A stretch of DNA of 64,000 nucleotides from an uncultured Spirochaetota bacterium. Lineage in GTDB: Bacteria > Spirochaetota > Brevinematia > Brevinematales > JAOACQ01. This document shows, piece by piece, positions 9,001 through 27,000 of the stretch. The stretch covers positions 544,001 to 608,000 of the forward strand of contig CAWAOD010000011.1 in the NCBI GenBank assembly GCA_963783575.1. Reading direction: 5' to 3'. A program made the position numbers. How positions within the stretch are numbered: position 1 is the stretch's first letter; each line of letters starts with the position of its first letter.

Positions 9001-12000
9001 TCCATATATAAATCCTGTACATCGGGATTTAAATTAACAAATCCCCAGGAAATATCCTTGTTATGGCCTAATAGAATGAGAGGTTCTCCGGGAAGCGAAA
9101 AACCGCTGACGTCGAAACGCCCTCCATGCAGGCCGACTTCATACCAGACGGAAGGAATATTAAGGCCCATATGTACATCACAGGCAAGGATCGGTTTGCC
9201 GGATTCTGTATATTGCCCGCTGACGGCCCATGCGCCGCTGGCCCAGCCGAATGTCGATGAACCGGTAATATAGTCTTCCAGGCTTACCGTTCCTTTGATT
9301 TTATTGTTTTTAAGCCAAATATATTTATCCGCAAAATAATTTTCCGGGATAATATTGTTTTTTTTAGATTTATCGATTCGGGATAAAATGTTTTTCCTCC
9401 AGGAATACTTTTCCAGTTCTTTTGTAATTATTTCGGGATTGTCCTCATCCCAGGCCGGAAGCGCATCATCCGTCATTTTTTCGCCAAGTTTTGCTATCAT
9501 CTGTGCCCGGAAAAGTTCATAACTGAAGTTTACGGCATTCAATAAAGCCATTACATTTCCAAAACTCATCGAATCAAGTGGCGTCCATTTTGAAGGTTTA
9601 ATTTTCAGTAAAGTAAATTCTAACGGCAAGTTATCTTTATGAGTGTCTATATAGGCGTTAATACCGTCGCAATATGCCTGCAATTGGGCTTTAATATCAT
9701 CATCCAGCAAAGGATATGATTTTTCGGCAATTCTGCGCATCCCGTATACTCGCATTGCCTTATCCGTACCGACTCCTGGTTTTCCTACCATTTCGCTTAA
9801 GGTTCCGTTTCCAAGGCGGTGATGAATTTCCAGCTGATATAAACGGTCCTGTGCATGGACATACCCCTGCGCGAAAAACAGGTCATGATCGTTTTCAGCA
9901 TATATGTTAGGTATTCCCCATTTATCCCTCCTGACAGTTACATTTGACTGAAGTCCTTTTACTTCAAGTTTCCCGCTGACCTGCGGCCAGGGTTTTGTTA
10001 TTAAGAATGTTATCATAATAGCCGCAATCAAAATGATGACAGCTATTACAATTCCTGTTATTTTAATAACTTTCAGCTTTGATTTTTTTTTCATTTTTAT
10101 ACCTCATTTATCTTAAAATTCGCCTTCCACATATTTTGTTCCGGCTGGAGTTTCAGATGTTTTTTCTTTATGTGACCAGAGGATAGTTTCAATATATTCA
10201 GCCATATAAGAGACTGTAGGATCCTCAAAAATAACGTTATTGACCGGCAATTCAACTTGAAAATCCTTCCTCAGCCTTGAGATCAAACGGGCATTCATCA
10301 GGGAATCACCGCCTAACTCAAAAAAGTTGTCATAAATTCCGATGGGTTTTATGCCCAGAGTTTCTTCCCATATATTTATAATCGTTTTTTCCAGGTCATT
10401 TCGGGCGGGAGTATATTCTTTTTTCAGGTCTGGCCTGGAACCGAATGAAAGGGCTGAGTTTTCTGCGGTTGAATTATTAATTGAAAGATTAATGTCTGAA
10501 AGTATGATTTCATTCGGTTTAGATCCTGATATTACAACCTGCGGAGGTATCCCCCGGATCATAAGACGATCAAAAAGTTTTCCGGCGTTCTGTGGAATTT
10601 CGCGGCCGGTATTATCCCAATTTAACGTAATCCATTCGGTGCTGCTGAATTTATTGATTTCCCGGATAAATGAATCAAGCCAGGTATATAAAGATGAGTG
10701 AACCGGGGAATTTGAACTTCCGGTATACCCGGTAATAGCAGAGTTTACTGCGATGAAATCAGGGGGATTTTGTGAAACGGCAGTATTAAGATTATTAATC
10801 TCTTTTTTAACATTATTTATAAGACTATTAAAATCAATAATATTGAATGCGTTGAGTGAACTGATGGTTTGCTCCGCTAACAAAGCGGTTCCATACAGGA
10901 TACCGTCAACCCTGCCGGAAATCTCTGCCGCTTTTTTAAACACTTTTTCCATATCGCTTAATATTGTAAGATCTGCTTCTATAAAATCGATACCTGTAAT
11001 ATTTTTTAATTCGGCAGCATTTTCAGGAATAGTATAACCCGGGCGTTGAGTCATAATAATCTTGGCATTATACTTTTGAGCTAAATTCCGGGCAATCGAA
11101 ATTTCTATTTCATTGTGTGAATTTAGAAAAAGATAAGTGCCTTTTTCTTTCAATATACCGATATGATTAAATGGTTCTTCAAGCGTAACCGGTTCAAAAT
11201 CCTGAACCCAGCGTATATTCCTTCGATAAGCTGTTGCTTTATTTGCTTCTTCTATCATAATATCGGAAATAATGGTTTCCGCAAGACCTTCTGATTTGAT
11301 TTCTATTGCAGGATCTTCAGGGCTGATATCTATTAAACGGCATTTCAGATGCGGAAACAAAAGGGGAATAGTTTTCATTAAACCGATAACCGGCTGGAGG
11401 TTCAGATCGATCCGGTCATTAGAATTTATTTCAAATAGATTATTGAAGATCGAGGTAATCCTGATTTCTGATTTAATTTTACTTCCGGCTGTATAACTTG
11501 ATAATAAAAGAAGGTTTTGAAAATCGCTTATTCCCTCATCGGACTTCTGAAGTCCCCAAAGATATAAAATATTATCAATAGGTTTTTCCCGGTTCTGTAT
11601 TTCTTTAAATAATGTTAAATAATCTTCGGGGTTATCTGTGGATATAATGAACTGACCGCCATTGATCTTTTTATATCCTGAACCTCTTCGGATAATAATC
11701 AAATCCTGTCCCCGTTCCGATAAATTTCCGATTAATTTTTCACTAATTTCACTGTCATCAGTGAGAACCAGCCATGTGTTACCTTGCCGATAATTTTTCT
11801 TTAAAATGGGAACCATCGATTTTTTGAAAAAAGGCAGGTATATTTGTCCGGATAAATCCTGATAACCGGATGATGTTTTTTTTATTTGAGAAAGATCCGG
11901 ATAGATCCAGCATGGTTTTTTGTCGAAAGGGTAGGCCGGCAGCGATACCCTGCACCTGGATTCTTCCTTAAAATACTTGTCCCAATCAACAGTAACACCT

Positions 12001-24000: not shown

Positions 24001-27000
24001 CCTGCCGCAAATACTGTCAGGCCTTTCAATTTTTCCTGTGATTCTATTCCCCATTGATCCAGGATAAGCTGCCTGGTATACCGTATTTTTTCTTTTTTTG
24101 AAAGCCCGGGTAAATTATCAATACTGTTTTTTATTATATAACTTAAACGACCGGACAAAGTCTTTAATTCAAGGTATGTTAATTTCTCATCATCCATTTC
24201 TATTGCAATTTGCTCTGGATTTTCAAGTACCTGTATTTCAAATCTTCCGATGATTGACTGCTCAATCTCTTCCTTCCGGAATGGAATAAATTGGTGATCG
24301 ATTATCACCGGTTTCGGTTCGATCGGGATTAATTCTGGGAGTTCGTTTATAAAAAGTTCCGGTTGATCCGCCAGCCGGGCCGTTAGAATTTCAAAATGAT
24401 TTACCAGCCAATTTACGGTATTTTCAGAATATAAATCAGCTTTAAAAGAGAAATCCATCTGGATCCCAAGCTCGTGTTCAATCGCAAGCAAGGTGATGTC
24501 GAATTTGGAATTGATATTTTGGGCCCCGATGATATCCCGGTTGTATGGTTCTATTTCAAGCCCGGGGAGTTTCCAATTATACCTGGCGCTGTACATATTG
24601 AATAAAACTTGAAATATAGGAGTTTTATTCCGCTGTCGCGGCGGTTTTAGTTCCTCAACCAATAAATCAAAAGGGATTTCCTGGTTTGATAAAGCCCCGG
24701 ATGAAGATTCCTTAACAGATTCAAGAAGATCTGTAAAGCGGATATTATCGCTTATTCCCGTACGTATAACGACCGTATTGAAAAATAACCCGATTAACGG
24801 TTCGAGATCACCTCTGTTTCTGCCTGCAATAGGTGACCCAACAACAATATCCCTGATCCCGGAGTATTGATGAAGCAATACCTTAAAAATAGATAAAATT
24901 GTAACATAAAGCGAATAACCGTATTTTTTACTGACCGATTTTAATTTAGCTGTGATATTACCGGTAATCATATAGTTTTTACGGATACTTTTATAGGATA
25001 AGACTTCAGGACGATTAAAATCGCCGTAAATTTCCGGTATATTCTCAATATTATTCAGTTTGTCTTTCCAATAGGATAACTGGAGTTCCTTTAATCCGCC
25101 GTTAAGCCTGTCATTCTGCCATTTGGCATAATCGGCATATTGAATTGACAATTCAGGCAGTACCGCGGTTTCACCGGTAACATATTCCGTATAAAAAGCT
25201 ATTAATTCCTGAACGAAAATATACAACGATTGATTGTCGCATATGATATGATGAAATCCAAGCACCAGAACATGTTCATTTTCTGATACTTGAAGCAGTC
25301 TGGCACGAATCAGCGGGCCTTCGGCAAGGTTAAAAGGTGAGCTTAATTCTTCATTGTATTCGGCTATTACTTTTAAGTCTTTTTCGTTTTCTGATAATTT
25401 AATTATGTCGATAAGAGGCATATCTATTTTTAAATCCCGCGATATGATTTGATTCACTTCGCCATTGTTATTTATATAATTGGTTCGAAGTACTTCATGC
25501 CTTTGAATGATCCGGTTCATACTTTTATGGAGAGCTTTATAATTGAGTTTTCCTCTAAGACGGAACGCTATCGGAATATTGAAAGCACTGCTTTTTTCAT
25601 CCATCTGGCTGTGAAGCCATAGCCATTTTTGGCCGTAGGATACTGGAATATCTTCATTACGTGGGATTGGTTTTATTGGAGAAAAAAACGAGCTCTCCCC
25701 ATTCAGAGATTCAACAAAGCGGATGATTTCTTCCTTGTTATCTGTGATTTCTGCTTTAATTTCATCATTCAGGGCTCCGGCAGGTGCTTTATATTTAAGA
25801 GTTCCTTCTTCAACCCAGATTTGTATTCCTAGATTTTTCACCCTATATAATAAATTTACTATATTCATGATTATTTCCTTTTTTAATCTAAATAAATCAT
25901 TTTTAACACATGCCCCTTCGGGTTCCTTCGATAAACTCAGGGCAGGCTGCTTGACCAGGTTTAGATTCCTTACGCAACAAAGTTGCGTATAGCTATGTGG
26001 AGTTATCCCGAGCAGAGACTGCCTTGAAGGGTCGAGGGAATTCCTATAGAAGAAGCTTTCAGTTTTCTTATTTTAATACTACGAGGCTCTGTCCCGAGGA
26101 TCATAACTTAACAAACTTATAAAAAGACTTATAAAAAGACTTATAAAAATTTTTATAGAAAGTATTATAATGAATTAAATAAAATATAGCAAATAACCTT
26201 TTGTTCAATAATCCTTAAACCTTTTATTGATTAAAAATAACAAACATTTCAGTTAGTATTCAAATTAAGGGGGAAAACACAAAACTAAGATTATTATTGG
26301 TTCTCTTATAACTTTGACAGCTTTAACTTTCATTTAAATACAGGCAGATTAAATAAAACCACGATCTGCTGTTTATTTGACAAAAAAATGATTTATTTAT
26401 AAATTTTATCCTGCTAAAATATATGAATTTTGAAAATTATTTTTTATTGAGGAGTTTTTATGGGTGAAAAGAATAAGATTACTAAAGAAGCAAAAAAACC
26501 GCCCCAAAAAACATTGAAGGAAAAAAGAAAGGAAAAGAAAGATAAAAAAGCGGAAAAAAACTATTAGCGAGCGAACAGCTTAAGGGTTGTTTTTCTTACT
26601 TTGATAGTTTTTATACTTATCTTTAATTAATTATCCTGTTAAGTTTAATTCACGCAAATAATTTTGATTATTAATAAAGTATTTTTGTAATTTTAGTCGA
26701 TTTATTTAGGATTTTAAAAACTCAATAAAAGTCACCCTGAGCTTGACGAATGGGTGACAAGTTTTGAGGTAATTGTAACCATACTTCGTCGAGCTTAGTA
26801 TGATGATGACAGTAAAAAAAGAGTTTTAAGAACTGCCCTTTATTAAATGGGGTATATTATGAATGAAGTTGATGATATAAGGATAGATAAATGGTTAAAA
26901 ACTGCACGTATTTTTAAAAAAAGAGAAGATGCGGCGGATGCCGTTGAAAATGGAATGGTTAAACTAAACGGAATAAAGGTTAAACCATCCAAGAATGTAA

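Follow-up and report, generated by a model that had tools for sequence, protein, structure and literature searches.

Within the window, by which we mean the whole 64,000-nucleotide stretch of DNA analysed here from an uncultured Spirochaetota bacterium, the reading frames P0001 and P0002 make up, as judged from their domain content, one NRPS elongation module of the type dock-C-A-T-E, the adenylation (A) domain of which is interrupted between core motifs a1 and a2. The intervening segment is an E1-like ThiF domain that is complete and looks catalytically active. Asp/Glu-type substrate codes are, by comparison with published codes, enriched in A domains hosting this ThiF subfamily, unlike in their neighbours, and the in-line adenylyltransferase probably acts on the second carboxylate of Asp or Glu, most likely for cyclodehydration.

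The insertion of a ThiF domain between a1 and a2, as reported in a first-pass annotation, was reproduced both in its Pfam architecture and in its BLASTP figures (Table 1). P0001 residues 543-580 aligned to positions 29-66 of the A domain of the neighbouring P0003 (E 4.5e-4), and residues 907-1396 to positions 74-550 of the same domain (31.4% identity, E 1e-68), so that about 326 residues sit between the two motifs. The Pfam core of the insert occupies residues 597-824 (23397-24080; PF00899, 179.9 bits for a cut-off of 28.1, profile positions 1-221 of 238). It is followed by AMP-binding at residues 907-1222 (profile positions 47-384 of 384) and AMP-binding_C at 1279-1354, yielding the arrangement that characterizes an interrupted A domain, with a1 before a complete foreign domain and a2-a10 behind it. 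In an AF2 model of residues 530-1423 (pLDDT 84.2, pTM 0.83), the A part superposed on EntF (5t3d) with an rmsd of 3.2 over 534 columns.

The partial PP-binding match of P0001 (residues 1384-1420) ends at a stop codon, beyond which the sequence goes on in frame in P0002. The two open reading frames share one frame and are separated by a lone TAG; the break, earlier put down to a probable frameshift, is thus a single in-frame stop inside the T domain. Nor does P0002 begin with the next C domain, as had been proposed: its top solved matches were epimerisation (E) domains (PvdL E2, 9e-46; GrsA E, 2e-37; TycA E, 5e-33), with C domains far behind at only about 1e-9, and its match to TIGR01720 was weak (52 bits, under the cut-off of 74.2). 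Because of the TAG, the gene may be inactive in this genome, or else the base call may be wrong. That the module is dead here, whatever its role elsewhere, is a minority prospect that deserves to be taken seriously, the stop falling in the T domain where relatives carry a sense codon. Against it, this is one stop only, with no further damage over ~5.7 kb, in an assembly that the first-pass annotation described as error-rich; 15 relatives are continuous across the site, and the nearest one, of the same genus (G404/L001), is open there with a Gln codon (CAA).

Table 1. Features of the interrupted NRPS module and its neighbours (window coordinates)
Feature	Position	Strand	Basis
P0001 (= g02966); order TubC_N dock, C, a1, ThiF insert, a2-a10, T	21597-25868	-	
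TubC_N-type N-terminal docking domain, P0001 residues 3-51	25716-25862	-	Pfam PF18563, 60.4 bits
Condensation (C) domain, P0001 residues 72-510	24339-25655	-	Pfam PF00668, 317 bits
A domain, first piece with motif a1 LTYLEL, P0001 residues 543-580	24129-24242	-	BLASTP
ThiF/MoeB-type E1-like insert, P0001 residues 581-906	23151-24128	-	Pfam PF00899
A domain, remainder a2-a10, P0001 residues 907-1354	21807-23150	-	Pfam and BLASTP
T (carrier) domain, broken by stop codon	21516-21719	-	Pfam PP-binding and in-frame continuation in P0002
In-frame TAG inside T domain	21597-21599	-	DNA read
Epimerisation (E) domain, P0002 (= g02965) residues 42-487	20130-21467	-	Matches to solved E domains
P0003 (= g02964): fatty-acyl-AMP-ligase-like domain, ACP, C, A, T	14698-20076	-	Pfam
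P0004: PKS module KS-AT-KR-ACP	10113-14663	-	Pfam
P0005: membrane-anchored penicillin-amidase-family hydrolase	7485-10094	-	Pfam PF01804, 703 bits
MATE efflux transporter	5987-7387	+	NCBIfam TIGR00797, 221 bits

The E1 motifs previously described as intact are present in the P0001 insert, namely RYxRQ, the glycine-rich ATP loop GAGGSGSP, DFDxVELSNLNRQ and two CxxC pairs, together with NKAxSA, FDxxD and a family-specific GFDW stretch. Across 119 aligned inserts (the query plus 118 of the 120 matches listed, two partial rows having been dropped), RYxRQ, AGAGG, CDxDxVELSNLNRQ, NKAxSA, FDxxD and both CxxC pairs were at least 90% conserved. All phosphate-, Mg- and Zn-binding positions were kept to the same extent, in sequences whose identity to the query falls as low as 35-50% over the region compared. 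The zinc-site pairs read PCxHC and PxCxxC in the family; the crossover-loop cysteine of P0001 is not conserved across it. Alignment with MoeB placed identical residues at the equivalents of R14, R73, K86 and D130, which, going by MoeB-MoaD structure work, we take to bind phosphates and Mg; these equivalents are invariant in A1 as R70, R129, K142 and D186.

The best matches of the insert were to MoeB and ThiF of E. coli, the adenylyltransferases for MoaD and ThiS (1jw9, 8e-27; 1zfn, 7e-23), with which it has the ATP-site and zinc-site residues in common. It differs from them in being embedded in an NRPS, in that a crude scan found no carrier gene, and in having, compared to MoeB, ~45 extra residues with the conserved GFDW between its two CxxC pairs. 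NCBIfam ThiF/MoeB models matched it at 1e-44 to 1e-41, far beneath their equivalog cut-offs (150 bits for a cut-off of 275 with TIGR02356, 147 for 266 with NF004281 and 123 for 377 with TIGR02355). A MoeB-like homodimer is predicted for the insert, with a score of 0.89 compared to 0.00 for the best of three controls, a pass that may only mirror likeness to MoeB and ThiF because their dimers are already solved. Of proteins with known structures, 20 of 30 same-chain pairs and one of 23 single chains attained the mark. Dimer runs agreed in at least 97% of contacts, partner pLDDT was at least 84, and the RYxRQ helix of one copy contacted SNLNRQ of the other.

The homologue search again returned 140 proteins at E<=1e-3, the number given by the first-pass annotation, now among 6454 candidates of 782-2491 aa, and PF00899 occurred together with NRPS families in all 120 matches listed of these 140. 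Consistent with the earlier statement that the architecture also exists in other phyla, the ThiF subfamily recurs in NRPSs of several phyla, including as an intact gene in the cultured Ruminiclostridium hungatei DSM 14427 (L003). Its members sit between a1 and a2, a2 and a3 or a8 and a9, ahead of a whole A domain, or, in one case, in a separate gene between NRPS genes; among the 112 fused relatives that were placed, a1-a2 insertions and fusions N-terminal to the A domain together account for 52, a2-a3 insertions for 16 and a8-a9 insertions for 44. The split form is seen in L043, where the gene order is T-C, stand-alone ThiF (316 aa), A-T-C, and at least one stand-alone relative (L046) lies in a non-NRPS context. 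In every architecture, ThiF is found upstream of a T domain.

Substrate codes of the host A domains were read at positions set by motif anchors, a placement checked solely by its returning known Gly, Asp and Glu codes exactly, the published codes being taken from PMC12283262 (supplement Tables S13 and S15) and PMC10548584. At seven or more of the nine positions, 59 of 134 host A domains matched a published Asp/Glu code, compared to 2 of 60 non-host domains taken from these proteins and loci, and at six or more positions 91 of 134 did so (9 of 60 non-host), counts that overstate independence because the sequences are related, each architecture or code group forming one to three clades in the ThiF tree. 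Host codes included DLTK.GHIG (a published Asp code), DAKD.G... (Glu), DAMHVGG.. (6/9 identities with the SulI and Fen Glu codes) and DPRHLA.LA, which is 8/9 identical to that of Zmn16 module 1, the entry point of side-chain-linked Asp into prezeamine according to the accessible text of PMC5811116. The exact Asp code was also present in the A domain beside the stand-alone ThiF of L043.

The association has exceptions. Six of the 134 hosts matched published Asp/Glu codes at four positions or fewer; by a looser pattern, 6/128 were not acid-like, among them P0101, whose code is one listed as Gln; and the code DAMHVGGVT also occurs in three or more A domains that lack a ThiF in cis. In the subclade to which P0001 belongs (24 sequences), the code is SAMHDGGVI, which matches published Glu codes at only 5/9 positions, lacks Asp235 and carries Asp at 299, and the substrate of this subclade is for these reasons not established as acidic. 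Asp235 is the residue that binds the alpha-amino group. Taken across the family, the Asp/Glu link nevertheless provides a concrete substrate hypothesis. Of the in-line, E1-like carboxylate activation put forward in the first-pass annotation, the architecture holds and has been extended, and the function, which we still infer, gains indirect support from the codes.

In the mechanism that we propose, the host A domain would load a dicarboxylic amino acid onto the T domain, and the ThiF domain, as a MoeB-like homodimer, would spend ATP to adenylate the other carboxylate of the loaded residue. The acyl-adenylate would then be attacked by a nearby nucleophile, most likely the backbone amide nitrogen to give a cyclic imide or lactam, with an external amine as a less likely alternative. 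Backbone-amide attack would be the same chemistry as that of the RiPP enzymes MccB, PaaA and EnfB, which, per the accessible text of PMC12596934, adenylate a peptide carboxylate (in PaaA, that of a Glu side chain) and close the ring by way of an imide; the same text gives carboxylate adenylation followed by cyclisation, often via a cyclic imide, as the general course of known non-carrier ThiF-like enzymes. The insert matched PaaA at 1.7e-16 and MccB at 1.3e-12. Whereas these enzymes have an RRE or peptide-clamp domain at the N-terminus and use ribosomal peptides, the ThiF domain of P0001 directly adjoins A-domain sequence on both sides and its substrate would be carrier-bound; neither an N-terminal RRE or peptide clamp nor a precursor peptide gene was found for P0001 by Pfam, BLASTP and a crude ORF scan.

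In this cluster, the module would act after P0003 has supplied acyl-Gly and P0004 has added one ketide unit. The A domain code of P0003, DILQLGMVW, is glycine-type, and the accessible part of PMC12283262 gives a Gly code that is almost the same. The membrane-anchored amidase P0005 and the MATE pump would act on the exported lipopeptide. Both are conserved in related clusters, with P0005 homologues in L003 and L008 (57% identity to the L003 copy by tblastn) and MatE genes in L003, L004 and L008.

Three other roles for the insert were weighed against second-carboxylate activation. It is quite unlikely that the domain is mainly structural, pairing two NRPS chains to match both the dimeric PKS partner and the dimeric docking domain and binding ATP for stability alone. 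The predicted homodimer would fit such a role, subject to its possible origin in likeness to solved MoeB dimers, as would the docking of the module to the PKS through its TubC_N domain, domains of this type being dimers. A purely structural role, however, gives no reason for the acidic-code link, and the conservation of phosphate, Mg and Zn positions across the divergent inserts and the existence of stand-alone and N-terminally fused forms also speak against it. We consider very unlikely a second-loader role, in which ThiF would adenylate a carboxylate belonging to a different molecule, either a free acid or a peptide C-terminus, and pass it to the phosphopantetheine thiol as an E1-like thioester. 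E1 chemistry does end in a thioester, and the constant position upstream of a T domain is in keeping with it, but loading is already covered by the host A domain, which retains all core motifs, no conserved small ORF was noticed beside the genes in the crude ORF scan, and the acidic codes would be left unexplained. Least credible of all is the activation of a separate ThiS/MoaD-like sulfur carrier, or the making of a thiocarboxylate, with sulfur ending up in a thioacid or thioamide of the peptide: the closest solved or curated relatives, MoeB, ThiF and Uba4, do activate sulfur carriers, but Pfam found no rhodanese domain, the crossover-loop cysteine is not family-conserved, and a crude scan of window positions 1-27000, L001-L005, L008 and L043 for ORFs of 45-130 aa with an ATG start and a terminal GG returned none, although it would miss carriers that use another start codon or lie elsewhere. 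The first-pass annotation had likewise seen no sulfur-carrier gene nearby, and of the products it offered (cyclisation, oxazolone or imide formation, thiocarboxylation), thiocarboxylation is the weakest.

Like the interrupted A domains with M, KR, Ox or MOx inserts, P0001 combines a complete second catalytic domain with preserved core motifs, and the classical sites a2-a3 and a8-a9 are also used by its ThiF relatives. It differs from them in that no E1-like ATP-dependent adenylyltransferase figures among the insert types, and a1-a2 is not among the sites (a2-a3, a6-a7, a8-a9), named in the accessible texts of PMC8341866 and PMC11355689. No description of ThiF-interrupted A domains was found in the searchable literature. 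A 2025 review (PMC12596934, accessible text) states that ThiF-like enzymes may well act in NRPS pathways and gives as the only validated non-RiPP example OxzB, a ThiF-nitroreductase oxazolone synthetase acting on the carboxylate of an N-acyl amino acid. OxzB is a free enzyme made up of two domains, ThiF and its partner nitroreductase, whereas Pfam detected no nitroreductase domain in P0001-P0005.

Going further, we suggest tentatively, and with more doubt than confidence, that the ThiF subfamily may be a new class of on-line, ATP-driven cyclodehydratases for NRPSs, converting carrier-bound Asp/Glu, in either alpha or side-chain linkage, to lactams or cyclic imides such as aminosuccinimide, aminoglutarimide or N-acyl-pyroglutamyl units and also forcing a module dimer. 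The range of insertion sites, together with the split form, offers a natural experiment on domain grafting into A domains. NRPS domain catalogues and genome-mining tools cover a fixed set of tailoring domains, to which an embedded E1-like adenylyltransferase would, if our reading is true, add a reaction type in which ATP is used to activate a second carboxylate of the carrier-bound substrate. A cyclodehydratase class of this kind would define a family of undescribed lipopeptides from anaerobic and uncultured bacteria, made by Spirochaetota, Bacillota, Acidobacteriota/Aminicenantes and Omnitrophota.

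The Pfam scores and ranges obtained for P0001, the NRPS protein that carries the ThiF domain, agreed with those of the first-pass annotation, and the placement of the insert between core motifs a1 and a2 was reproduced when P0001 was compared by BLASTP with the ordinary A domain of P0003, another protein of the cluster. The alignment consisted of two collinear pieces, residues 543-580 of P0001 matching positions 29-66 of the P0003 A domain and residues 907-1396 matching positions 74-550. The insert between a1 (LTYLEL) and a2 is thus 326 residues long. Two other elements of that annotation were not borne out. 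The probable frameshift between P0001 and the adjoining P0002 was ruled out, the two ORFs sharing one frame and being separated by a single in-frame TAG (21597-21599). This codon sits in the middle of the T domain, which carries on directly in P0002, and it is CAA (Gln) in the nearest, same-genus relative (L001), with a sense residue at the same position in 14 other relatives compared. Either a nonsense mutation or a miscalled base accounts for the TAG; the remainder of the ThiF module gene is undamaged. P0002 had further been taken for the next C domain; its best solved-structure matches are E domains (PvdL E2, 9e-46; GrsA E, 2e-37; TycA E, 5e-33), C domains scoring only about 1e-9, and it is, as judged from these matches, an epimerisation domain. 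With P0002 read as an E domain and the T domain continuing in frame, the module is dock-C-A(ThiF)-T-E, of about 1915 residues, the same length as uninterrupted relatives (1888-2075 aa).

The four biosynthetic ORFs of the window (P0001-P0004) all lie on the minus strand, and the cluster boundary was set at 25868 because the genes for Hsp15, Mfd and FliD lie upstream of P0001. A domain profile search of the cluster proteins scanned found no thioesterase domain. The MATE pump is flanked by two penicillin-amidase-family genes, next to a cluster whose first domain is fatty-acyl-AMP-ligase-like; this arrangement, with the N-terminal membrane anchor of P0005, suggests that an acyl group is removed after export, in a pro-drug style of maturation. 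The ORF at the window edge had no family match, its sole trace being a faint, below-threshold hit to a KaiC-like ATPase.

Features of the ThiF NRPS cluster and its surroundings in the window, and the conserved ORF found in two Bacillota loci
Feature	Sequence	Coordinates	Strand	Content
P0001	window	21597-25868	-	TubC_N dock, C, ThiF, A, half T domain
P0002	window	20121-21590	-	biosynthetic ORF, epimerisation domain
P0003	window	14698-20076	-	fatty-acyl-AMP-ligase-like domain, ACP, C, A, T
P0004	window	10113-14663	-	KS-AT-KR-ACP
P0005	window	7485-10094	-	penicillin-amidase homologue, N-terminal membrane anchor
MATE pump	window	5987-7387	+	
Second penicillin-amidase-family gene	window	3241-5394	+	
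ORF	window	1-3198	+	1065 aa, open at window edge
Conserved ORF	L003	14366-15616		about 420 aa, no Pfam family, directly after ThiF NRPS gene
Conserved ORF	L008	14412-15686		about 420 aa, no Pfam family, directly after ThiF NRPS gene

NCBIfam groups the insert with ThiF and MoeB (1e-44 to 1e-41), far under the equivalog cut-offs. Among solved structures it is matched best by E. coli MoeB (1jw9, 8e-27), followed by Uba4 and ThiF and, more distantly, by PaaA (1.7e-16), MccB (1.3e-12) and TcdA (1.3e-12). When aligned to MoeB, the P0001 insert retains the first CxxC pair and the residues at R14, R73, K86 and D130, whose roles come from structural work on MoeB-MoaD. An alignment of 119 inserts, from which two partial rows were left out, showed at least 90% conservation of RYxRQ, AGAGG, CDxDxVELSNLNRQ, NKAxSA, FDxxD, PCxHC, PxCxxC and the family-specific stretch GFDW, and no conservation of the crossover-loop cysteine of P0001. 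An AF2 model of P0001 residues 530-1423, built from 44 aligned relatives, was confident (pLDDT 84.2, pTM 0.83), low confidence being limited to three short stretches, among them the crossover loop and the linker that follows the insert. The A part of this model superposes on EntF (5t3d) with an rmsd of 3.2 over 534 columns, and a Foldseek search with the whole model yielded only ordinary NRPS A domains among its ~50 top matches, none of them a solved A domain interrupted by ThiF. The insert was predicted to pair with a second copy of itself as a MoeB-like dimer (score 0.89; best of three controls, 0.00), the dimer mark having been reached in the benchmark by 20 of 30 proteins solved as same-chain pairs and by 1 of 23 solved as single chains. 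The runs agreed in at least 97% of contacts, with a partner pLDDT of at least 84, and the RYxRQ helix contacts the partner's SNLNRQ. Since the dimers of MoeB and ThiF are solved, this prediction speaks for likeness and not for binding.

Searching with P0001 residues 540-910 yielded 140 proteins, 782-2491 aa long, and PF00899 occurred together with NRPS families in 120 of the 120 matches listed. Among the organism names attached to the matches are Ruminiclostridium hungatei, Wukongibacter, Clostridiaceae M8S5, Aminicenantes, Acidobacteriota and Omnitrophota. Among the 112 fused relatives that could be placed, ThiF lies at a1-a2 in 52 (including P0117 and P0125, in which it precedes a complete A domain), at a2-a3 in 16 and at a8-a9 in 44. 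The a8-a9 inserts bring with them an additional segment whose alignment to P0001 starts ahead of a1 and stops shortly before a3, so that each resembles a grafted a1-ThiF-a2 cassette, with a vestigial N-terminal A-domain fragment lodged in another A domain. P0032, P0049, P0077, P0096, P0098 and others are of this cassette type.

The subfamily also occurs as stand-alone proteins of 293-320 aa, whose identity reaches 61% along the full insert. A metagenome scan recovered three whole stand-alone genes and one cut fragment (L048) in 29 strong loci; of the whole genes, one lies in an NRPS cluster (L043), one in a non-NRPS context (L046) and one on a contig too short to tell (L045). The architecture is split in L043 (130-6719), where a gene for a 316-aa stand-alone ThiF lies between a T-C gene and an A-T-C gene and a type II thioesterase is encoded downstream. 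Of 399 genomes scored in the class to which G001 belongs, the stand-alone protein P0169 matched (E<=1e-45) in one, G001 itself, where the copy is NRPS-embedded. In a FastTree phylogeny of 160 ThiF domains, a long branch parts the subfamily from ordinary 250-aa ThiF/MoeB proteins; one clade holds mostly stand-alone proteins and two N-terminal fusions, and the other is mostly NRPS-embedded, each architecture or code group forming one to three clades.

To compare substrates, the nine pocket positions were taken from the core of every A domain among the hits and metagenome loci by HMM alignment anchored on P0001, a procedure that recovers the glycine-type code of P0003 and the exact published Asp and Glu codes. 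Published references were drawn from the code listings of PMC12283262 (main text and supplement Tables S13 and S15) and PMC10548584. Host A domains, meaning those that carry or are served by a ThiF of the subfamily, fell into a few code groups: DLTK.GHIG or DLSK.GHIG (Asp); DAKD.G... (Glu); DPRHLA[IV]LA, 8/9 identical to Zmn16 module 1; DARHLS...; DAMHVGG.., matching the Glu codes of SulI and Fen at 6/9 positions; and SAMHDGGVI, the code of the window's subclade. Zmn16 module 1 is described in the primary zeamine paper as incorporating side-chain-linked ('gamma-') aspartate (PMC5811116), and the label 'AMA' (alpha-aminoadipic acid) given to this code in another paper was set aside accordingly. 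Published Asp or Glu codes were matched at 7/9 or more positions by 59/134 hosts versus 2/60 non-hosts, the latter being A domains from the same proteins and loci, and at 6/9 or more by 91/134 versus 9/60, counts that come from related sequences and are not independent events. With unique codes only, the figures at 7/9 were 15/33 and 2/32. All were made after reassigning six hosts missed by the distance rule and one A domain served in trans. The link nevertheless reappears whether ThiF sits at one insertion site or another, is fused N-terminally or is encoded separately; in L043, the A domain next to the stand-alone ThiF has the exact Asp code. Non-host codes were mostly glycine-type (DILQ.G..W, 19), DSACVAEVA (8) or proline-like. 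In a few hosts the code is not of the acidic kind, one being listed as Gln, and at least three DAMHVGGVT A domains lack a ThiF in cis.

The window's own code, SAMHDGGVI (pocket at 22700-22900), is common to its 24 closest relatives and matches Glu codes at just 5/9 positions. Asp at position 235 normally binds the alpha-amino group and is needed for alpha-amino acids. Compared with the sister group DAMHVGGVT, position 235 is changed from Asp to Ser and position 299 is Asp, a coupled swap that suggests, at the level of the code, an unusual substrate or binding mode. We considered whether an A domain with Ser 235 and Asp 299 might bind Glu in reverse and activate its side-chain carboxylate; however, an E domain follows immediately, which speaks instead for an alpha-amino-acyl thioester as the form in which the residue is bound.

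The nearest genome, an uncultured Spirochaetota MAG (L001), shares 83% identity and the gene order of the window, and the next nearest copies, at 67-75% identity, are from Bacillota MAGs and R. hungatei (L003). Of 41 genomes searched (that of the window and 40 relatives), just two, the window's own and that of the same-genus relative, hold the NRPS-embedded ThiF; the other nine matches are ordinary ThiF/MoeB genes at 33-39% identity. This patchy occurrence, with the next closest copies in Bacillota, and a G+C of about 0.41 in the cluster region versus about 0.31-0.33 in the flanks fit horizontal transfer. The Bacillota clusters keep the MATE pump, a KS-(AT)-ACP gene and the ThiF NRPS, and penicillin amidase in L003 and L008. 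They have in addition, flanking the ThiF gene, an NAD-binding ORF (L003, L004) and the conserved ORF without a Pfam family (L003, L008); homologues of neither were found in the window. In one Bacillota MAG (L004, 8249-21022), two tandem dock-C-A(ThiF)-T-E genes are separated by an acyl-CoA:6-APA acyltransferase-like gene of the peptidase C45 family.

Taken together, the order of the domains, an intact ATP site and the link to acidic codes lead us to propose activation of a dicarboxylate, in which the host A domain would load a dicarboxylic residue and a ThiF dimer would adenylate the other carboxylate of that loaded residue. The groups differ in module position: DAMH and DPRH codes mostly belong to initiation modules, the window's group represents an elongation module that has an E domain, and in the a8-a9 group T-TE mostly follows. 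According to a 2025 ThiF review (PMC12596934), all ThiF-like enzymes without a carrier-protein partner adenylate a carboxylate that is then attacked by an intramolecular nucleophile, with MccB, PaaA and EnfB proceeding through or to a cyclic imide and OxzB yielding an oxazolone. By analogy, an imide or lactam would rank first among the possible outcomes, coupling to an external amine second and a thioacid last. A crude sulfur-carrier search, covering ATG-started ORFs of 45-130 aa in window 1-27000 and seven related loci, found none ending in GG, and Pfam found no rhodanese domain in the cluster proteins.

A literature search, with subscription journals and bioRxiv supplements outside its scope, returned no paper describing an NRPS with a ThiF domain. 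The 2025 ThiF review counts only one validated non-RiPP case, its reference at that point being a general NRPS review (PMC12596934), and the listings of interrupted A domains in PMC8341866 and PMC11355689 give M, Ox, KR and MOx as inserts and a2-a3, a6-a7 and a8-a9 as sites. Automatic annotations already show the domain combination, as in the UniRef name 'HesA/MoeB/ThiF family protein' of the relative P0082. The ThiF-interrupted A domain, of which the window's gene copy carries a stop codon, is a real and recurrent NRPS design that is apparently undescribed, and the Asp/Glu code link gives it a concrete, testable substrate hypothesis.
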